Position numbers and translations under genes: made by a program. A stretch of 61,654 nucleotides of DNA from positions 1 through 61,654 of the forward strand of contig JAIEMM010000007.1 of assembly GCA_019752125.1 (NCBI GenBank), in the 5' to 3' direction. This DNA is from Patescibacteria group bacterium (lineage in GTDB: Bacteria > Patescibacteriota > Minisyncoccia > Phycocordibacterales > SBAW01). The stretch's first letter is position 1. Each line of letters opens with the position of its first letter. Positions 2,832-59,019 of this stretch are shown here, piece by piece. A model generated the notes under the pieces. The model made no database searches, was not told the DNA's origin, and saw nothing but the letters and a program-made list of their open reading frames with translations.

Positions 2832-3812
2832 ATGACCTTTGCGATTTTAATGTCGCTCATTACTCTCGGCTTGTATTGTGTACAACAGCTGGGTGTCACT
2901 CTTGCTGTTGGTGCTGAAACAATATTGCTTGTTGCGTATCTTCAAGCGGTTCGTGATGGTGTTGTTGATGAAGAAGAAAAAGGGTTTGCCCGCGCAGTAC
3001 GAAGCGTTAAAGATTTCGGTTTGTTTTTCATAATCATTTCTGGAGGAGCTCTAGTGGCTAATCAGTTTTTTACCGGTCAGCTTAATGACTTTCTTTCAAT
3101 CACCGTGCTCTTTAAATGGAGCTTGATAGGTATCGGGCTTTTCTTAGGATTTGTTCGCGGTTCTGGTCTTATAACAGGATTGATACAAGGTCTTTCTGCG
3201 GGAACATGGTACGCGCTTTTTGCCGTCCATATCTTAGCGCCTGAAGCGCCTTGGGAGCAGCTCGTCATATTTTATGGGATCTGGCTTGTCGGATTTTGCA
3301 TGTGTTGGACCGTTCTTGTATTTTCATTACGAAATAAAAAAGCTGCGTATGTGGCCCCTGCGCGCCCGGTAGCTGCAAGTGCTGTGCCAAAGGCTGCTGT
3401 GGTAATTACTCCGGACAGGGTGAAGTCTACGCAGGAAACAGTCGTAGCCGAGCCTGCGCAAGCTCGTCCGATCGGTTCTGTCGAACCGCGGCCCGATCTT
3501 GCTCCGGCATCCGCGACATTTATTTCTCCGGTTACGATGACTATGCCGAAGCAGAACCCGGCTGCGGAGCCGAAGACCGACGCAGAGGGTTCTGCGCAGG
3601 CAAAACCACAACCTTCTATTCCGACTATTCCGACTCCTCCGACGCCGCCGTCTATGCCTATAGCGGCATCTATACCTCCTCCTGTTCCGCCACCTCCACC
3701 GCCAAAGGTTCCAGTGTCTGCTCCTACAACACCTCCGCCGCCAGCCTCATGGTTGCACGTGATGCCAAAAACACCTGAAGAGCTCGCAAAACGTAAGGAG
3801 CAGACGTCATAA
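2832..3812 (+). CDS. Hypothetical multi-pass membrane protein with long Pro/Ala-rich C-terminal tail
   Basis: About 5 hydrophobic segments in first 165 aa, then low-complexity Pro-rich tail; TGnTAAAAT 6 nt before ATG. Confidence 0.8.
   Translation: MTFAILMSLITLGLYCVQQLGVTLAVGAETILLVAYLQAVRDGVVDEEEKGFARAVRSVKDFGLFFIIISGGALVANQFFTGQLNDFLSITVLFKWSLIGIGLFLGFVRGSGLITGLIQGLSAGTWYALFAVHILAPEAPWEQLVIFYGIWLVGFCMCWTVLVFSLRNKKAAYVAPARPVAASAVPKAAVVITPDRVKSTQETVVAEPAQARPIGSVEPRPDLAPASATFISPVTMTMPKQNPAAEPKTDAEGSAQAKPQPSIPTIPTPPTPPSMPIAASIPPPVPPPPPPKVPVSAPTTPPPPASWLHVMPKTPEELAKRKEQTS
3547..3600. repeat. Palindromic element (45-nt stem-loop plus flanks), copy 1, within CDS
   Basis: Core 3559-3581 identical to 36829-36851; closing 9-bp stem GCAGAACCC/GGGTTCTGC. 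Confidence 0.85.
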
Positions 3813-14555: not shown

Positions 14556-15617
14556 ATGTTTGGGAAGAATAAGGGAAAAGTATTTGTAGGCCTCTCGGGG
14601 GGTGTAGATTCCGCTGTTTCTGCGGCTCTTTTGCAGTCGCAAGGATACGACGTAACAGGCGTATTTATTAGGATTGCCTTGCCCGGATACCCATGTTCAG
14701 CGGGAGCTGATCGTATTGATGCAATGCGCGTTGCTACCCACCTTCAGATTCCATTTTTGGAAATCGACCTATCTGAGTCATACGCAAAAGAAGTGTTCGC
14801 CTCATCCCTTAGTGGATTTAAAAAGGGGAGGACGCCTAACCCAGACACTCTCTGCAACCGTGAAATAAAATTCGGTGCATTTTTTAATTTCGCAATGGAG
14901 CAAGGTGCAGATTTTGTTGCCACAGGACATTATGCGCAGACAAAAGACGGGTTGCTCTATGCAGGAAAAGACCCCTCAAAAGATCAAAGCTATTTTCTGT
15001 GGATGGTGAAGAAGGAAATACTTGAGAAAACTATATTTCCTGTTGGTAATTTGGAGAAAACAGAGGTGCGTGCACTCGCGGAGAAATTCAAACTTCCAAA
15101 TGCTCGCCGCAAAGACAGTCAGGGATTGTGCTTCTTGGGAGAGGTTTCTATAGAAGATATGCTCCATAAAGAATTGAGTCCTGTGCCCGGCGATGTCCTT
15201 TCGGAAACTGGGGAAGTGATTGGCCGTCATGAGGGCACGCCTCTCTATACGCTTGGGCAAAGACATGGTTTTACACTTTCCTCACAGACACCCGACACAA
15301 AAGCCCACTTTGTTATTGAAAAAGATATTGAATTCAACACCATTACTGTCTCAACAGAGCGGTTCCCTCATGGTGTAACAAAAACAGACGTTACGCTTAT
15401 AGAAACTAATTGGATAGGGGAATTACAGGCGAGGTCGGACCTTGCCGCCCAATACCGTTACCACCAAACGCTTATCCCAGTGGAGATTGTAGGGGAAACA
15501 CACGTAGTACTTGGGCAACCTCACTACATGCCGCTAGGTCAATCACTCGTTTTATATACAAAAGAAGGCAGATGTCTTGGTGGAGGTATTGTTGACAAGT
15601 CAGATCTCACTGCATAG
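14556..15617 (+). CDS. mnmA: tRNA 2-thiouridine synthase MnmA
   Basis: SGGVDS, TPNPDTLCNREIKF, ATGHYA, KDSQGLCF. Confidence 0.97.
   Translation: MFGKNKGKVFVGLSGGVDSAVSAALLQSQGYDVTGVFIRIALPGYPCSAGADRIDAMRVATHLQIPFLEIDLSESYAKEVFASSLSGFKKGRTPNPDTLCNREIKFGAFFNFAMEQGADFVATGHYAQTKDGLLYAGKDPSKDQSYFLWMVKKEILEKTIFPVGNLEKTEVRALAEKFKLPNARRKDSQGLCFLGEVSIEDMLHKELSPVPGDVLSETGEVIGRHEGTPLYTLGQRHGFTLSSQTPDTKAHFVIEKDIEFNTITVSTERFPHGVTKTDVTLIETNWIGELQARSDLAAQYRYHQTLIPVEIVGETHVVLGQPHYMPLGQSLVLYTKEGRCLGGGIVDKSDLTA
15429..15445. repeat. Short palindrome within mnmA CDS (ARSDLA)
   Basis: GCGAGGT-CGG-ACCTTGC; 15/17 match to reverse complement of 2376-2392. Confidence 0.6.
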
Positions 15618-32129: not shown

Positions 32130-32609
32130 ATGTTGAGCGACTCTGATGAAGAATTTATACAAGAAGACGAAGACCAGAGCCCAGCCGCCATCAAAAAACT
32201 CCGAGAAAAACTAGCGACGGCAATAAAGGAGAAACAAGAATACTTGGATGGCTGGCAGCGGGCCCGAGCGGACTTCGCAAACTTCAAAAAAGAGGAGGCT
32301 CTGATGCTTGCGCAGAAAGAAGACCGCATCAAAGCAGAATTTGTAGAAGCGCTTCTTCCGACCCTCGACTCTTTTGAGATGGCGCTCAAGCATAGCCCTT
32401 CAGATGAGCTCAAGTTAGTAGAAAAACAATTACTCGGTTCATTGCAGAAGATGGGAGTAGAGCGGTTCGGGGCACAAGGAGAACCATACGACCATTACAA
32501 ACACGAAGCATTGGCCCAACAAGGAGATGGCGAAACAGTGAAGTCAGTTGAACGTAGCGGATATAAAACAGGAGAAATAATTATTAGACCAGCACAAGTG
32601 ATTATCTAG
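32130..32609 (+). CDS. grpE: Nucleotide exchange factor GrpE
   Basis: [45 protein letters not shown]; TTGACT-16-TAAAAT ending 6 nt before ATG. Confidence 0.95.
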
Positions 32610-32641
32610 ATAATCACTTAAATAAAAAGAATAATCTAAAT

Positions 32642-34543
32642 ATGGCAAAAATACTTGGAATCGACTTGGGTACAACAAACTCTGCAATGGCAATTATGCG
32701 CGGAGGGGAGCCTCAGATTATTGAAAACGCAGAAGGCGCACGCACTACCCCCTCTGTTGTTGCCGCCTCTAAGACAGGGGAGCGCTTGGTTGGTCTTATT
32801 GCACGCCGCCAAGCGGTAACTAATCCTAAGAACACGGTCTACCAGATCAAACGCTTTATCGGCCACAACTTTGAAGAAGAATTTGTCCAGAAAGACAAAT
32901 CGGCTGTTCCATTTGAAATGCGTAAGACTGCCAACGGAGGCATTGAAGTAGAGATGGGCGGTCAATGGTCTCGCCCGGAAGAAATTTCTGCGATGATCTT
33001 GGGTAAGCTTAAAGCTGATGCGGAAAAACGCCTTGGCGAAACTATTACAGAAGCAGTTATCACTGTTCCTGCGTACTTTAACGACGCACAGCGCGCAGCA
33101 ACTCGCGACGCAGGTAAAATTGCCGGCCTCGATGTTAAGCGCATCATTAACGAGCCAACAGCCGCAGCGCTTGCATACGGATTCAACAAAAAGAAAGATG
33201 AGAAAGTTGTAGTCTTCGACTTCGGCGGCGGCACCTTCGATATTTCTGTGCTTGAAGTCGTTATGGCAGAAGGCAATGAAGGCTCTATTGAAGTACGTTC
33301 AACCGACGGCGACGCACACTTGGGCGGTAAGGATATCGACCAGAAAATTATCGACTGGATTGCAACAGAGTTCCAAAAGGAAAGCGGTATTGATGTCCGC
33401 AACGACCCACTCGCGCGCCAGCGCCTCGACGAAGCAGCTGAGAAGGCAAAAATTGAACTTTCGACTGCTATTGAAACTGAAATAAACATTCCGTTTATTA
33501 CCTCCGACTCTTCTGGCCCTCGTCATCTTTTGCTTAAGATGACTCGCGCAAAGCTTGAAGAGCTTTCTCAGGAATTCATTGACCGCGCACTTATGATCAC
33601 AAAGCGCGCAATGGAGGCATCGCCGTTTAAGGTAGCTGACATTAACGAAGTCATTCTCGTTGGTGGCCAGACCCGCATGCCAGCACTCCAAGCTGCCGTT
33701 GAAAAGTATTTCGGCAAGAAGCCAAACATGTCTGTAAACCCAGACGAAGTAGTCGCTATCGGCGCCGCAATCCAGGGAGGTATCCTCGGTGGAGATGTAC
33801 GCGACGTGCTTCTTCTCGATGTTATTCCACTCTCACTTGGTATTGAAACCATGGGCGGCGTTGCAACGAAGATCATTGAACGCAACACAACAATCCCTAC
33901 CAGCCGCTCACAGGTATTTTCAACTGCGGCGGACAACCAGACATCAGTAGAAATTCACATCTCACAAGGGGAGCGCGCAATGGCAGCAGACAACAAGTCT
34001 CTTGGACGCTTTGTTCTTGATGGAATTCCACCAGCACCGCGCGGCATGCCACAGGTTGAAGTTACCTTCGATGTAGACGCAAACGGCATTCTCTCTGTAA
34101 AAGCAAAAGATAAAGCAACCAATAAAGAGCAGTCTATCCGCATCGAAGCATCATCTGGCCTTTCAGATGCTGATATTGAAAAGATGCGTAAAGATGCGGA
34201 GGCAAATGCAGATTCTGATAAGCAGAAAGCAGAACTTGTAGAGGCTAAAAATATGGCAGAACAATCTGTCTACTCTGCAAAGAAAGCACTCGATGACAAC
34301 AAAGACAAACTTCCCGCAGAACTCGCCACTTCAATAAATGAAAAAATTGCTACAGTTGAAGCAAAGAAGGGTGGAGAAAATGCCGCTGAGATAAAAACAG
34401 CAGTCGAAGAACTCTCGAAAGAATTATCGAAAGTATACGAGGCGGTTCAAAAGACTTCAGGCAATAATCCGCCAGCAGGGGAACAAACTCCACCGCAGGA
34501 AAATCCTGAAACACCTCCAACAAGCAACACTGACCAAGCATAG
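32642..34543 (+). CDS. dnaK: Chaperone DnaK
   Basis: [40 protein letters not shown]. Confidence 0.99.
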
Positions 34544-36816: not shown

Positions 36817-36870
36817 CGAAGGCAACGTCGGCTGCGGAGCCGAAGACCGACACAGAGACGTTGCCGCAGG
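36817..36870. repeat. Palindromic element (45-nt stem-loop plus flanks), copy 2, intergenic
   Basis: Same core as 3547-3600; closing stem GGCAACGTC/GACGTTGCC. Confidence 0.85.
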
Positions 36871-36966
36871 AGCTCAGGAAGAGGTTTTTGTTGCAGCATC
36901 CGTTCATGTAGTCCCATATATGGGACCGTTTGCGATACGTGGGAAAGTTGTTAGAATGGGTCTAAG

Positions 36967-39537: not shown

Positions 39538-39666
39538 ATTGGCCTCCTTCTATTTTGTTGAGGGGAACTAGCGAACTACTCGTATATTATATACCACGAA
39601 AGAGTGTTTCGTCAAGTTTATATAAACGAAGCCAGGTAACACTTTTTCTGCTATATTGTGGATAAT

Positions 39667-41004
39667 ATGCAACGGACACTTATAGGCGATTTGGGCGCGC
39701 ACAAAGGAGAAGAGGTAACCATTAAGGGCTGGGTCAGCGTGCGCCGCGACCAGGGCAAGATGGTGTTTTTTGATTTTCGCGATCGCTCGGGAACTGTACA
39801 GGGTGTCGTGCTTCCTCCGCCAGCTGGCGGACTCGCAACTATGGAGATTGCAAAAGAAATTCGCAACGAATATGTCGTTTCAGTAGATGGCAAAGTAAAT
39901 GCCCGCCCAGAAAAAAACGTTAACTCAAAAGTTCAGAACGGTGACATTGAACTTGAAGTAATGGGCATTACTATTTTGGCAAAAGCAGAGCCGCTTCCAT
40001 TCGATATGTCAGTAGATGGCTACAATCTCGACCTCACAACTGAACTCGACCATCGCGCACTTACACTCCGCCACCCACGCCTCCAGGCTATCTTTAAAGT
40101 GCAGGCCGTTATCATCGACTCGTTCCGTGAATACATGAAGTCTCAGGACTTTATGGAATTCCAAGCACCTGCAATTACACCAGCAACCGCAGAAGGCGGA
40201 GCAGAAGTATTCCAAGTTCAATACTTCGACAAGAAAGCATACCTCACACAGTCGCCACAGCTCTACAAGCAAATTGTGATGACTGCGTTTGAACGCGTGT
40301 TCTCAGTAAACAAAGTATTCCGCGCAGAACCATCTGCAACCACGCGCCATATTACAGAAATCGTTTCTCTCGATGCCGAAATGGCATTTATCGAATCGTG
40401 GACGGATGTACGTGATATGTCTGAAGAGACAGTACGTTTTGTACTCCAGCAGGTAGAAAAGAAATGCGCCCGCGAACTCGAAGTGTTGGGTGCAGTACTT
40501 CCAACAATGATAGAAAAGACTCCAACATATTCTCTTACTGAAGCGTTTGCAAAACTCGGTGTTCCAGAAGATAAAGATCTTAATCCAGAACAAGAACGTA
40601 AGCTGTGCGAAATAGTAAAAGAAGAAACTGGTTCTGACTTTGTATATGTCTACGGCTATCCAACAATGAAGAAGCCGTTTTACGTATATCCAAACCCAGA
40701 GAATCCAGAATTTAACGAAGGTATGGACCTTCTATGCCGCGGTGTTGAATGGCTCTCAGGCGGCCGCCGCGTAAACGACTACGCACAGCTTATGCAACAT
40801 GTCGAAAAGTGGGGGATGGATCCTAAGAAAATCGAAATGTTCCTCGAAGCCTTCCGCTATGGCGCACCACCCGAAGGCGGCTTTGCTTTGGGTGCTGAAC
40901 GCATGACCATGCAGATCCTCGGCCTCAAAAACATCCGTGAAGCAACTCTCTTCCCACGCGACATGAACCGCATCGACTTGCCGCTTTCAGAGACTGAGAT
41001 TTAA
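39667..41004 (+). CDS. aspS: Aspartate--tRNA ligase, archaeal-type (likely non-discriminating)
   Basis: OB fold GWVSVRRDQGK, EGGAEVF, QSPQLYKQ, FRAE, GGFALGAER, FPRD; about 445 aa without GAD domain. Confidence 0.93.
   Translation: MQRTLIGDLGAHKGEEVTIKGWVSVRRDQGKMVFFDFRDRSGTVQGVVLPPPAGGLATMEIAKEIRNEYVVSVDGKVNARPEKNVNSKVQNGDIELEVMGITILAKAEPLPFDMSVDGYNLDLTTELDHRALTLRHPRLQAIFKVQAVIIDSFREYMKSQDFMEFQAPAITPATAEGGAEVFQVQYFDKKAYLTQSPQLYKQIVMTAFERVFSVNKVFRAEPSATTRHITEIVSLDAEMAFIESWTDVRDMSEETVRFVLQQVEKKCARELEVLGAVLPTMIEKTPTYSLTEAFAKLGVPEDKDLNPEQERKLCEIVKEETGSDFVYVYGYPTMKKPFYVYPNPENPEFNEGMDLLCRGVEWLSGGRRVNDYAQLMQHVEKWGMDPKKIEMFLEAFRYGAPPEGGFALGAERMTMQILGLKNIREATLFPRDMNRIDLPLSETEI
39816..39831. repeat. 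Perfect 16-bp palindrome TCCGCCAGCTGGCGGA in aspS (PPAGG)
   Basis: Identical copies at 41124 and 43449. Confidence 0.9.
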
Positions 41005-41019
41005 GCCTATAATTAGGCT

Positions 41020-42450
41020 ATGAAATTCCAAACGACTCCTGCAAAGGATGCTATTACTGTTGATTTTATTGAAGGCTCGCTGAATCGTTTTGATGGAAAA
41101 ACTCTCTCTATCGGATATGGTAATCCGCCAGCTGGCGGAAAGCCGCTTAACCGTCGCAAATTTGTTTTGTTTACCCGTAAAGTTGTCTCAACCGCAAAAC
41201 AGAATAAACTAAAAACTATTTCTGTTGATTTTAAGAGTCTGAAATCAATCGCTCCAAAAGATTTCTCTGATGCAGAGGTTGCAAAAGTAGCTGCTACATC
41301 GTTTGTAATGGCGGACTACGAACACAATACATATAAGCGCAAACCAAAGGACGGCTTCGCACGTGTTGAAGTGGTGTGTTTATTGAACGCATCTAAAGAA
41401 GCTATTGAAGGTGCGAAGAAGGGCCACTGGATAGCAGAGGAAGTAAATGCCTGCCGCGAGTTGGCAAACACTCCGGGCGGTGACTTAACTCCGAAACAAT
41501 TTTCTGCACTCGCAAAGAAAACTATTAAGGGTGCAGATACTAAAGTTACTGTACTTGGCCGCAAAGAAATGGAGAAACTCGGCATGGGTGGAGTTGTCGG
41601 CATTGGCAAAGGCTCAGACAATGAGCCGCAGTTTGTTGCCGTTGAATATTGGGGGGCCAGCCCCTCGACAGGCTCGGGGCGATTAAAACCTGTGGTTTTA
41701 ATCGGTAAAGGCGTAACGTTTGACTCAGGAGGCCTTAACTTGAAACCAGGCGACCACATGTACGAGATGCACATGGACATGTCGGGCGGGGCAGCAGTGC
41801 TCTATACCGTTGCGCTCGTAGCAAAACTTAAATTGAAAGCAAACGTTGTCGGCCTTATCCCAACTGTAGAAAATATGCCAGGCCAGCACGCAGTCCGCCC
41901 AGGCGACATGCTCAAGTCTATGTCTGGCCGCCACATTGAAGTACTTAACACAGACGCAGAAGGTCGCGTTATCTTGGCAGACGGTATTACCTACGCGAAG
42001 AAATACAACCCTGCAGTTGTTGTAGATGTTGCAACACTCACTGGTGCGGCACTCACAGCTCTCGGTACCCAGTGTTCAGCAGTAATGACTAACGACCAAA
42101 AGCTTGAAGACACACTTCGCGCGCTTGGAGAAGAGTCTGGCGACTATGTCTGGCCATTCCCAGTCTGGGAAGAATACGAAGCAATGACTAAAGGAATCTT
42201 CGGCGATGTTCCAAACATCTCAACAGACGGAAATAGCCGCTATGGAGGGGTTATTGCAGGAGGCATGTTCCTACATGAATTTGCGAAGGATTTGGACTGC
42301 CCATGGGCCCACATAGACATGGCCCCTCGTATGACATCAACTCCAGGCGAACACCTCGCTAAAGGCGCTGTAGGGGCTCCTGTGCGTCTTCTTTTGGCTC
42401 TTGTAGAACGCTACGCCCTCGGCCATAGCCCTACGGGCGAGGCAAAATAA
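41020..42450 (+). CDS. pepA: Leucyl aminopeptidase (M17)
   Basis: GKGVTFDSGG, MHMDMSGGAAV, NTDAEGR, DVATLTGA. Confidence 0.96.
   Translation: MKFQTTPAKDAITVDFIEGSLNRFDGKTLSIGYGNPPAGGKPLNRRKFVLFTRKVVSTAKQNKLKTISVDFKSLKSIAPKDFSDAEVAKVAATSFVMADYEHNTYKRKPKDGFARVEVVCLLNASKEAIEGAKKGHWIAEEVNACRELANTPGGDLTPKQFSALAKKTIKGADTKVTVLGRKEMEKLGMGGVVGIGKGSDNEPQFVAVEYWGASPSTGSGRLKPVVLIGKGVTFDSGGLNLKPGDHMYEMHMDMSGGAAVLYTVALVAKLKLKANVVGLIPTVENMPGQHAVRPGDMLKSMSGRHIEVLNTDAEGRVILADGITYAKKYNPAVVVDVATLTGAALTALGTQCSAVMTNDQKLEDTLRALGEESGDYVWPFPVWEEYEAMTKGIFGDVPNISTDGNSRYGGVIAGGMFLHEFAKDLDCPWAHIDMAPRMTSTPGEHLAKGAVGAPVRLLLALVERYALGHSPTGEAK
41124..41139. repeat. 16-bp palindrome copy in pepA (PPAGG)
   Basis: Identical to 39816-39831. 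Confidence 0.9.
41660..41680. repeat. 21-nt hairpin within pepA CDS (SPSTGSGR)
   Basis: GCCCC/GGGGC and CGA/TCG stems in a loop just before the conserved KPVVLIGKG. Confidence 0.55.
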
Positions 42451-42454
42451 AGAA

Positions 42455-42482
42455 GGCGCCCGACGGTAAAACCGTGGGCGCC
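42455..42482. terminator. Hairpin between convergent genes (likely terminator)
   Basis: GGCGCCC-G-ACGG-TAAAA-CCGT-GGGCGCC. Confidence 0.7.
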
Positions 42483-42486
42483 CAAC

Positions 42487-42672
42487 TTAACGAGGATATT
42501 CTTTCTCGATTTCGGCTATTGCTTCGCAGTACGAGCAAAGCTTTTTACCGATTTCAATTTTTTCGTGGCAGCTTTCGCAGCGCACATCATCATCGTTGAA
42601 TTCTTCAAGTTCGGTGTGCTCCGGTTCGTCTTCAACGTCCCAAAGCGTTCCGCTGCAATACAACGTAGTCAT
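42487..42672 (-). CDS. Small acidic zinc-finger-like protein (CxxC...CxxC, 61 aa); accessory cassette
   Basis: CESC/CSYC; SD AGGAGAAGG; TTGACA-17-TATACT promoter (42839-42811). Confidence 0.7.
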   Translation of the reverse strand: MTTLYCSGTLWDVEDEPEHTELEEFNDDDVRCESCHEKIEIGKKLCSYCEAIAEIEKEYPR

Positions 42673-42870
42673 GACCTTCTCCTATATTGGGTTGAACCAA
42701 AATAGAAGCCTACCCGCTTTCTGCACGCACGCAGGGGCAAAGGGTAGAGGATCGGCTCTCGGTCCTGATAGCCCACACAGACCGAAAGATATTTAAAGAA
42801 CGTAAGCTTGAGTATATCTTAAATATTCTATTTTGTCAATAGCCATCTACATAAGGTAAAGTATAAGGGA

Positions 42871-43614
42871 ATGCCGATAAACGTAAAAACTGATGTATTT
42901 GAAGGGCCGCTGGACCTACTTCTTGAGCTTATAGAAAAGCGCAAGCTGCTTATTAACGATGTCTCACTCGCGTCGGTTACTGATGAATACATCGCGCGAA
43001 TCTCAGGGAATGAATTGCCTGTAGGGGAGACAGCTGAGTTCGTTGCACTCGCTGCAACACTGCTTCTTATTAAATCCCGCTCGCTTCTGCCAACTCTCGA
43101 GCTTTCTCCGGATGAGTCAAAAGATATTAAGGAACTTGAATACCGCTTAGCGGTGTACCAACTTATCAAAGAGGCGGCGAGAGGTGTTAGTAGTTCACTA
43201 GAAAACGCTCCGCTCTACGAAGGCAACCCGCCTGCAGTTGAACCAATGTTTTTATTTGATACATCTGCAACATTGGAGTCGCTTCGTGCATCTATTCAAA
43301 AGGTTATAGAAGAATTCCCTGTACAAATTTCTCTACCAAAAGTAGCAGTGAAGAAAATTGTTTCTATTGAAGAAATGATCCAGAAAATGGCGGGCAGAGT
43401 GTCATCTGCATTCAGTGTTTCTTTTAAGGAATTCTCCGGGTTAAACAATCCGCCAGCTGGCGGAAGGGGTGAACATATTAAACATGAAATAATTGTGAGT
43501 TTTCTAGCACTCTTAGAGTTAGTGAAGCAGGGTATAATTAAAGCACATCAGGGCGATCACTTTAGCGACATCACGCTTGAGTCCGATGCTGTATCTACAC
43601 CAACCTATGAATGA
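42871..43614 (+). CDS. scpA: Segregation and condensation protein A (kleisin)
   Basis: FEGPLDLLLELI, AATLLLIKSRSLLP, IIVSFLALLELVK. Confidence 0.95.
   Translation: MPINVKTDVFEGPLDLLLELIEKRKLLINDVSLASVTDEYIARISGNELPVGETAEFVALAATLLLIKSRSLLPTLELSPDESKDIKELEYRLAVYQLIKEAARGVSSSLENAPLYEGNPPAVEPMFLFDTSATLESLRASIQKVIEEFPVQISLPKVAVKKIVSIEEMIQKMAGRVSSAFSVSFKEFSGLNNPPAGGRGEHIKHEIIVSFLALLELVKQGIIKAHQGDHFSDITLESDAVSTPTYE
43449..43464. repeat. 16-bp palindrome copy in scpA (PPAGG)
   Basis: Identical to 39816-39831. Confidence 0.9.
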
Positions 43615-55361: not shown

Positions 55362-55380
55362 GGGGATTGACGACTTCCCT
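55362..55380 (+). promoter_or_regulatory. 19-nt promoter repeat copy 1 (contains -35 TTGACG)
   Basis: GGGGATTGACGACTTCCCT identical to 55548-55566; -10 TAATTT 16 nt after -35. Confidence 0.75.
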
Positions 55381-55547: not shown

Positions 55548-55566
55548 GGGGATTGACGACTTCCCT
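55548..55566 (+). promoter_or_regulatory. 19-nt promoter repeat copy 2
   Basis: Identical to 55362-55380; -10 TATTGT 16 nt after -35. Confidence 0.75.
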
Positions 55567-58609: not shown

Positions 58610-59019
58610 CTTCTAGCCCATCTCTGGGCGAGAAACACAGACAGCGGAACCAGTGTTGTTAACTGGAGCAATGGAGAAAGGCCTACGTGAAAAAGCGTGG
58701 GCATTGCTGTTGTATAGGCCCATGTATGCAGAGCCATTGCTTTATATTCAACCAGCAACGCAACAACAAACCCGCCAACTCCCAAAGCAGCGTAGTGGCG
58801 TATATACCAAGGTCCGACCTCGCCAGAACATAGAACCACAAACGTGGTAATCAACACTGTATACAACACATCTCCAGAGGTAGCCCAGAGAATGAGTGGC
58901 CAGCCACTCCCCAACTGCTCATACCCTGTATAGAGAGGCAGGTGCAGATACTCCCAAACCAGGTTAAAGGCAAAGGACAGAGCAACAACGGCTGCTATAA
59001 ATTTACTTGCTATGCGCAT
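58606..59019 (-). CDS. Hypothetical membrane protein (4 TM)
   Basis: [12 protein letters not shown]...GD; VEYKA..W.Y..MP...GLSPLLQ. Confidence 0.75.

Follow-up and report, generated by a model that had tools for sequence, protein, structure and literature searches.

A 16-nucleotide hairpin inserted in frame into three housekeeping genes of a Patescibacteria bacterium, and its possible link to a small GIY-YIG nuclease

Introduction

How does the same 16-nucleotide (nt) palindrome come to lie, letter for letter and in the same reading frame, in three unrelated genes of one bacterial contig? The question is raised by contig JAIEMM010000007.1 of a Patescibacteria group bacterium (Paceibacteria, Adlerbacteria-like; assembly GCA_019752125.1), which was analysed over its whole length of 61,654 nt (61.7 kb, about 47% GC) and is referred to here as the window. 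The sequence TCCGCCAGCTGGCGGA is found in the genes coding for an aspartyl-tRNA synthetase (AspRS), an M17 leucyl aminopeptidase (PepA) and the kleisin ScpA, and it is always translated as Pro-Pro-Ala-Gly-Gly (PPAGG). Judging from alignments with the DNA of relatives, one 16-nt hairpin was inserted into the DNA on three separate occasions, and the copies do not represent a protein motif. The reading that we favour, to which a probability of about one half is assigned, is that this hairpin belongs to a family spread through Patescibacteria and Bacteroidota, that it has its home beside a GIY-YIG nuclease gene at tRNA-Asn and that it was inserted separately in the three genes, the nuclease acting in the manner of the Ssn enzymes. 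The hairpin may be an extremely small mobile element.

The 16-nt hairpin and its copies in the window

The 16-mer is a perfect palindrome formed by the stem TCCGCC/GGCGGA and the loop AGCT, and as DNA it folds at -5.9 kcal/mol (z = -3). Exactly three exact matches are present in the window, and the generic pattern CCGCC-N4-GGCGG recovers the same three sites and no others; all three are found in + strand open reading frames (ORFs) at codon offset 2, reading T CCG CCA GCT GGC GGA. With up to three mismatches allowed the number of matches rises to four, against 0.13 expected by chance, and none of 100 shuffles reaches four. The copies and their host genes are the following:

39816..39831: copy 1, exact match, in the OB-fold domain of AspRS (P54-G58)
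41124..41139: copy 2, exact match, in the M17 aminopeptidase, N-terminal domain (N36 PPAGG K42)
43449..43464: copy 3, exact match, in the inter-domain linker of ScpA (N193 PPAGG R199)
34468..34483: possible decayed copy (13/16) in the C-terminal tail of DnaK, sharing both the frame and the preceding AAT
39658..41004, + strand: host gene 1, non-discriminating aspartyl-tRNA synthetase (class II), Pfam PF00152 (4e-79) and PF01336
41020..42450, + strand: host gene 2, M17 leucyl aminopeptidase, Pfam PF00883 (5e-106)
42871..43614, + strand: host gene 3, ScpA (kleisin of SMC-ScpAB), Pfam PF02616 (1e-17)

The dnaK variant reads AAT CCG CCA GCa GGg GaA (PPAGE), two of its three changes being synonymous, and it is located in a low-complexity tail of the protein, the length of which differs among relatives; it could be a decayed copy of the 16-mer, a homology that is plausible, if unproven.

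A first-pass annotation of the window had reported the identical palindrome in the PPAGG frame of three genes, together with the PPAGE variant in the dnaK tail, and exact matching at 39816, 41124 and 43449, as well as the sequence at 34468, confirmed both. Its account of the hosts can be kept only in part: the genes are indeed unrelated housekeeping genes, but PepA is not necessarily essential, as had been stated for all three proteins, and the gene named aspS, while coding for an aspartyl-tRNA synthetase, specifies the archaeal-type non-discriminating enzyme, which appears in source records as nondiscriminating aspartyl-tRNA synthetase or aspartate--tRNA(Asn) ligase.

The insert is carried by independent assemblies, and Logan contigs from four drinking-water runs, although of low coverage, span each of the sites and all contain it; this rules out an artefact of assembly. 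These low-coverage contigs include no empty allele, an observation that says nothing on excision.

Insertion into the host genes

Empty and filled sites were compared on the DNA of relatives and not on protein alone. The insert is missing from 118 of the 120 closest AspRS orthologues, from 117 of 120 for PepA and from 116 of the 119 other ScpA orthologues. In PepA, the orthologues read GYG-xx-K(P/S)L, while the window and three other sequences read GYG-N-PPAG-G-K/R; the 16 nt are identical in all four filled sequences, and the adjacent codons differ synonymously. In ScpA, GLN-KK-QGEH of the nearest relatives corresponds to GLN-N-PPAG-G-RGEH in the window, where the closest empty alleles have AAT AAA AAA CAG and the window has AAC AAT CCG CCA GCT GGC GGA AGG; PPAGG is also found in three other ScpA orthologues, shifted by one codon to either side. 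The same rule describes both genes: two codons X1 X2 become NNT CCG CCA GCT GGC GGA, that is, 4 nt (the third base of X1 and the whole of X2) are replaced by 16 nt, with a net gain of 12 nt or four amino acids (aa), so that Pro-Pro-Ala-Gly is added and the next residue is changed to Gly. In AspRS, 4 aa are likewise gained, but here the replacement of 4 nt by 16 fits less cleanly. The 118 empty orthologues, one of them 96% identical, read LPSSAAIETAKE and the window reads LPPPAGGLATMEIAKE; at the protein level, LP-SSAA-IETAKE is opposed to LP-PPAGGLAT-MEIAKE, SSAA being converted to PPAGGLAT with extra substitutions.

The exact 16-mer is present at seven of seven filled orthologue sites, while the flanking synonymous sites differ. 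When the AspRS gene of the window is compared with that of locus L003, 43 of the 68 flanking codons for the same residue show a synonymous difference, as opposed to none of the five within the element (p ~0.007). The spread at the DNA level into tolerant loops that had been proposed for the palindrome is borne out by these comparisons, in which the orthologues are mostly empty, the filled ones share identical 16 nt and each insert amounts to 4 aa; the orthologue alignment, suggested at the same time as a way to define inserted length and flanks, revealed neither varied codons nor an absence of indels.

Mapping onto predicted structures, a further check that had been suggested, places the sites in predicted coil or where the alignment varies most in length. 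The AspRS insert occupies the coil 52-58, which connects strand 45-51 to helix 59-67 in the OB-fold domain, in an AlphaFold model with local pLDDT of ~78-89. The ScpA insert belongs to a predicted interhelical coil (189-199), among the columns of greatest length variation; this model is of low confidence (pLDDT 51) and was used for secondary-structure context only. The PepA insert falls in a stretch of the N-terminal domain where other orthologues hold other insertions.

A classical transposon, or a miniature inverted-repeat transposable element, is recognised by terminal inverted repeats together with a target-site duplication; at the sites described here no duplication is seen and 3-4 target bases are lost. 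A 12-nt payload entering a 4-nt palindromic target was also considered and ruled out, the empty sites having nothing in common with the outer 4 nt of the 16-mer.

The pepA gene contains two further lineage-specific inserts besides the 16-mer. At 41680-41704 (residues ~218-229) a 25-nt perfect hairpin, CGATTAAAACC TGT GGTTTTAATCG, is created by a lineage-specific 5-aa insert, GSGRL, whose last bases mirror the conserved downstream codons (KPVVLIG). From its sequence, this looks like a template-switch event in which a quasi-palindrome was perfected, a process other than that of the 16-mer; the same loop holds unrelated inserts of 12-26 aa in other orthologues. At 42421-42450 the C-terminal extension LGHSPTGEAK is common only to one 85%-identical orthologue (P0122), the others ending in ...ERYAK, and a GGCGCCC/GGGCGCC hairpin is present at 42455-42482, 3' of the stop codon.

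A GIY-YIG nuclease cassette at tRNA-Asn

A conserved setting for the hairpin was found in a Wolfebacteria locus (L065), where an 88-aa GIY-YIG gene (Pfam PF01541, 5.5e-14) has on either side a copy of the first ~26 nt of tRNA-Asn. Both copies hold the 16-mer in place of the D-loop bases AAT; the intact tRNA-Asn comes next and overlaps the end of the GIY-YIG gene. The arrangement was followed in a set of 80 metagenomic loci encoding relatives of this protein (57-70% identity), with distances counted from the tblastn match, whose start is a few residues inside the GIY-YIG protein. The hairpin, with up to two mismatches, is present 16-65 nt upstream of the match in 76 of the 80 loci, and in a few it is also found directly downstream; tRNA-Asn abuts the 3' end of the nuclease gene in ~68. 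In ~38 distinct loci, the upstream piece is the 5' part of the local tRNA-Asn with exactly three D-loop bases replaced by the hairpin. The encoded proteins have 83-88 aa, with PF01541 as their only domain, and comparison with NCBIfam and the PDB yields a generic GIY-YIG assignment and no closer name.

Loci that apparently lack the hairpin hold nested forms, in which one copy harbours another in its 4-nt loop, three bases of this loop having been replaced (L198, L199, L212, L221 and L251). Among 72 distinct cassette copies, which were picked by their intact stems, the loop is AGCT in 53, the others including GGCT, AGCC, AACT, AGTT and GGCC; a stem-agnostic scan of the cassette loci, allowing up to two mismatches anywhere, places nearly all changes in the 4-nt loop. 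Such loop-confined variation fits a folded hairpin better than a site read as duplex.

Two loci have more elaborate arrangements. In L246, at ~1391-1470, a different hairpin with CCCGC arms encloses the 16-mer; this region, as well as positions 235-1170 of L259, contains tandem decoy tRNA-Asn pieces, one cassette being surrounded by as many as seven hairpin copies in 1 kb.

Distribution across genomes

Species-representative genomes were scanned with the 16-mer, and the figures that follow apply to the 120 matches listed. These include at least 41 Patescibacteria and at least 33 Bacteroidota loci; the remaining listed matches are largely from high-GC genomes, where the 16-mer is ordinary coding sequence in the RQLA frame. 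Among the Patescibacteria matches listed, about half of the copies are in ORFs of at least 150 aa, with the frames PPAGG in 22, SASWR in 2 and RQLA in 1; among those from Bacteroidota, copies are mostly non-coding and often form the tip of longer hairpins. Viral contigs gave 55 matches, mostly chance-like high-GC coding sequence in the RQLA frame, and no phage home for the hairpin was found among them. None of the papers searched contains the 14-nt core of the 16-mer, CCGCCAGCTGGCGG.

The 16-mer is also seen at the tip of hairpins of the CGTCATTGCGAG...GCAATC type (L058 at 4259, 7030 and 7142; L072 at 2302; L068 at 1254; L128 at 8791; L142 at 8338), which are hosted by Bacteroidota, one Patescibacteria locus and two viral contigs and resemble the head of published Ssn-related motifs. 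In L058, which comes from a Mucilaginibacter isolate, one copy of the 16-mer lies ~120 nt from a GIY-YIG ORF.

Ancestry of the inserts and alternative explanations

Whether each gene was hit once or repeatedly was addressed with trees built after removal of the insert columns. To account for the four ScpA carriers, the tree requires four changes, of which supported branches force at least three, and the inserts of these carriers occupy shifted, adjacent codons; they are therefore regarded as independent hits in one short linker. The two AspRS carriers belong to separate clades (96-100% SH-aLRT), and a tree constrained to unite them is worse by 91 log-likelihood units (p-AU 0.052). In the case of PepA, the supported branches are compatible with one origin.

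These trees bear directly on a first alternative, which is considered unlikely, although it can call on part of the same data: one ancient hit per gene, with the scattered pattern arising mainly from homologous recombination (natural transformation) of filled and empty alleles and not from ongoing insertion. Patescibacteria are generally considered naturally competent; the PepA tree allows one origin, and the AspRS carriers of two distant clades have in common not only PPAGG but three further residues (LAT), encoded by different codons, which suggests, at the level of sequence, either an old AspRS allele moved by recombination or convergence. Against this, the four ScpA inserts are at different codon positions, hence they are not one allele, and the nested cassette copies show repeated de novo insertion; moreover, recombination leaves unexplained the origin of the first copies and of copies in unrelated genes.

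Separate insertion has also to be weighed against purifying selection on a host-beneficial DNA signal, either a protein-binding site or a tag for uptake, segregation or recombination, whose position within genes would be incidental; this appears rather less probable still. It would account for 16 nt that are perfectly conserved between flanking synonymous sites near saturation, for the occurrence of the same word across phyla and for the invariant stems of the cassette copies, bearing in mind that these were picked by intact stems. A binding site, however, would arise by point mutation, and parS- or uptake-signal-type sequences originate by substitution in pre-existing sequence and are marked by density across the genome or by clustering near the origin, whereas all sites seen here are clean replacements of 3-4 nt by 16 that add sequence and were repeated independently at adjacent codons. 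Furthermore, variation limited to the four central bases fits a folded hairpin and not a duplex read by a dimer, each copy is dispensable in close relatives, and copies are sparse and unevenly spread, the 61.7 kb of the window having three that all fall in a 3.6-kb interval and the 12-16-kb syntenic stretches of relatives having 0-2.

The close spacing of the three copies had been taken as a sign of local hopping within the genome. For three points placed uniformly in the window, a cluster of this size has p ~0.01, yet relatives gained copies in the same loops of PepA and ScpA independently, and hopping is not demonstrated; a regional or loop-level hotspot, or a filter of tolerance, accounts for the clustering at least as well.

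That the hairpin is an element of the REP (repetitive extragenic palindromic) kind, moved by an HUH tyrosine transposase of the RAYT or IS200/IS605 type, is improbable. HUH enzymes do act on hairpins in single-stranded DNA (ssDNA) and insert without target duplication, but the 16-mer has neither a GTAG or CGTC head nor an oriented flank, and no RAYT was found in any hairpin locus examined, the conserved neighbour being the GIY-YIG gene. Finally, explanations by chance, by convergence on a protein motif or by an error of assembly or sequencing are refuted for the window, since, even though the exact 16-mer is ordinary RQLA-frame coding sequence in high-GC genomes and viral contigs, three exact copies are far above the expectation given earlier, identical codons recur in unrelated genes and independent assemblies and runs contain the insert.

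Proposed mechanism and its significance

Features directly seen are the clean replacement of 3-4 nt by 16 nt, the recurrence in the same loop, the nesting in loops, the constancy of the stem and the fixed place beside one nuclease family. In the favoured reading, by analogy with Ssn, the ~85-aa GIY-YIG nuclease would recognise the hairpin when it is in ssDNA. Where an exposed loop or a single-stranded stretch is broken, a hairpin copy would then seal the break, in the form of either a hairpin oligonucleotide that had been released or a short patch made by copying; selection would keep only the insertions that are in frame, in flexible loops and read as PPAGG. Hairpin-bearing alleles would also travel between related lineages by homologous recombination.

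A more specific version, which may be called "cut and plug", is put forward only tentatively: the ~85-aa Ssn-like single-strand nuclease would itself cut exposed ssDNA loops, and the break would be closed with its own recognition hairpin (16 nt in, 3-4 out), making this the smallest mobile DNA unit known. If true, it would represent a hydrolytic route distinct from all known transposition chemistries, by which PPAG loops are written into essential proteins and the helix tips of RNA genes are extended, across Patescibacteria and Bacteroidota.

Several points weigh against an insertion process driven by the nuclease. The insertion mechanism itself is inferred; GIY-YIG enzymes are hydrolases and, to our knowledge, are not known to join DNA, so that the joining step needs a host activity. 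Neither a target-site duplication nor a flanking target consensus was found around the hairpin loci, extended palindromes being a minority. The window contains no GIY-YIG gene and no tRNA, and in the reverse direction a GIY-YIG gene is nearby in only 3 of the ~120 hairpin loci listed (L032, L058 and L065). The link between hairpin and nuclease is one-directional and compatible with the hairpin being a mere regulatory or structural part of the cassette; at the same time, a weak reverse link is what dispersed copies would be expected to give. The published motif of the Ssn-related SRM repeats, HGTCWY-N0-2-YYVSBRH-N0-5-WNVSBRG-N0-2-RNCYNB, has no match in the window, and none of 301 hairpin instances is inside a match to it; sequence of the CGTCATTGCGAG type flanks the 16-mer in a few loci (L058, L068, L072 and L128). 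If the dnaK variant is truly a decayed copy, then copies can drift. As to AspRS, the common LAT with its different codons is better explained by an ancient common origin with conservation at the DNA level than by two recent insertions.

Should the link with the nuclease hold, Ssn/hairpin-repeat systems would extend to the Candidate Phyla Radiation, and a nuclease-hairpin pair would be found to remodel essential proteins, beyond intergenic DNA. A new lower size limit would be set for a dispersed element (16 nt, net +12 nt); its copies would provide a natural map of loops that tolerate four inserted residues in AspRS, PepA, ScpA and many other proteins, as well as a simple marker of strain-level turnover and recombination in uncultivated bacteria. 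The spread of short palindromic repeats would also become testable with two components, one small protein and one 16-nt oligonucleotide.

Other repeats in the window

Other short repeats are present in the window. A second palindromic family (CAAGGTCCGACCTCGCC, core GGTCCGACC) has two copies in opposite orientation, at 15428-15445 and 58808-58825. A 23-nt exact direct repeat, CGGCTGCGGAGCCGAAGACCGAC, is found at 3559-3581 and 36829-36851, one copy within an ORF and the other directly after the stop codon of an ABC transporter gene. Perfect palindromes are located 25 nt before the dnaK start (GTGATTATCTAGATAATCAC, 32598-32617) and directly upstream of dnaJ (GTCCCATATATGGGAC, 36911-36926); by sequence and position, these are candidate heat-shock operators, unlike CIRCE. 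An 18-nt direct repeat, GGGGATTGACGACTTCCC, which contains TTGACG, occupies two intergenic spots 186 nt apart (55362-55379 and 55548-55565) and is possibly a duplicated promoter or operator.

Comparison with known systems

The palindrome had been likened to the Rickettsia palindromic elements (RPEs) at a much smaller size. As summarised in PMC10969869, RPEs (Ogata et al. 2000/2002) are ~100-150 bp long, with a family-specific consensus from which the copies diverge. To the extent covered by that summary, the outcome is alike, in that a palindromic repeat is found in frame within unrelated housekeeping genes, is absent from orthologues and is read as an extra surface peptide, and in that RPEs too have no known associated transposase. 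On the same basis, RPEs are about ten times longer and diverging, while the 16-mer measures 16 nt (net +12 nt), is letter-perfect, has no conserved flanks, occurs in another phylum and has a conserved home beside a nuclease gene. The likeness therefore stands for the outcome, in-frame palindromic inserts, and a closer analogue is found in the Ssn nucleases with their hairpin repeats.

REP/REPIN-RAYT systems consist of extragenic 20-40-nt repeats with a GTAG or CGTC tag, moved by an HUH tyrosine enzyme. Like the family described here, they combine short dispersed hairpin repeats with a dedicated single-copy enzyme gene that is flanked by the repeat; they differ in that REPs are extragenic and HUH-moved, whereas the 16-mer is devoid of a conserved GTAG/CGTC head and has a GIY-YIG gene as neighbour. 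Phage T4 SegB is a free-standing GIY-YIG homing endonuclease whose gene is near tRNA genes; the cassette resembles it in the position of a GIY-YIG gene at a tRNA gene and in a presence that varies between strains. Seg enzymes, however, possess a DNA-binding domain and promote the homing of the gene that encodes them, and we know of none that seeds a short hairpin elsewhere in the genome.

The closest published analogue of cassette and hairpin is the Ssn/SRM system. Ssn nucleases are single-domain GIY-YIG proteins of ~94 aa in the cd10448 clade, which bind hairpin repeats (NTS/SRM; NTS/dRS3 of Neisseria) flanking their own gene and dispersed in the genome, and cut ssDNA only, beside the hairpin (Chenal et al., Nat Commun 2025, PMC11893778). 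The SRMs are 20-50 nt long, imperfect and oriented by a conserved 5' head (HGTCWY...), and repeats of this type are enriched in symbionts, Rickettsia included; the same authors describe an insertion sequence-like repeat-gene-repeat layout and propose that the enzyme may underlie repeat accumulation (PMC11893778). Some differences are evident: NTS are almost never intragenic (2%), whereas about half of the Patescibacteria copies of the 16-mer, among the matches listed, are in frame within ORFs, and neither the tRNA-Asn half-duplicate layout nor Patescibacteria appear in PMC11893778. The likeness concerns the main components, since both systems have a very small single-domain GIY-YIG protein (94 aa in Ssn, ~85 aa in the cassette) and a hairpin repeat that flanks the nuclease gene, in 76 of the 80 cassette loci, and is dispersed elsewhere. 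The first-pass annotation knew of no mobilising mechanism for the palindrome; with this comparison a candidate mobilising or partner enzyme, the GIY-YIG nuclease, can be named, the mechanism being inferred from its resemblance to Ssn.

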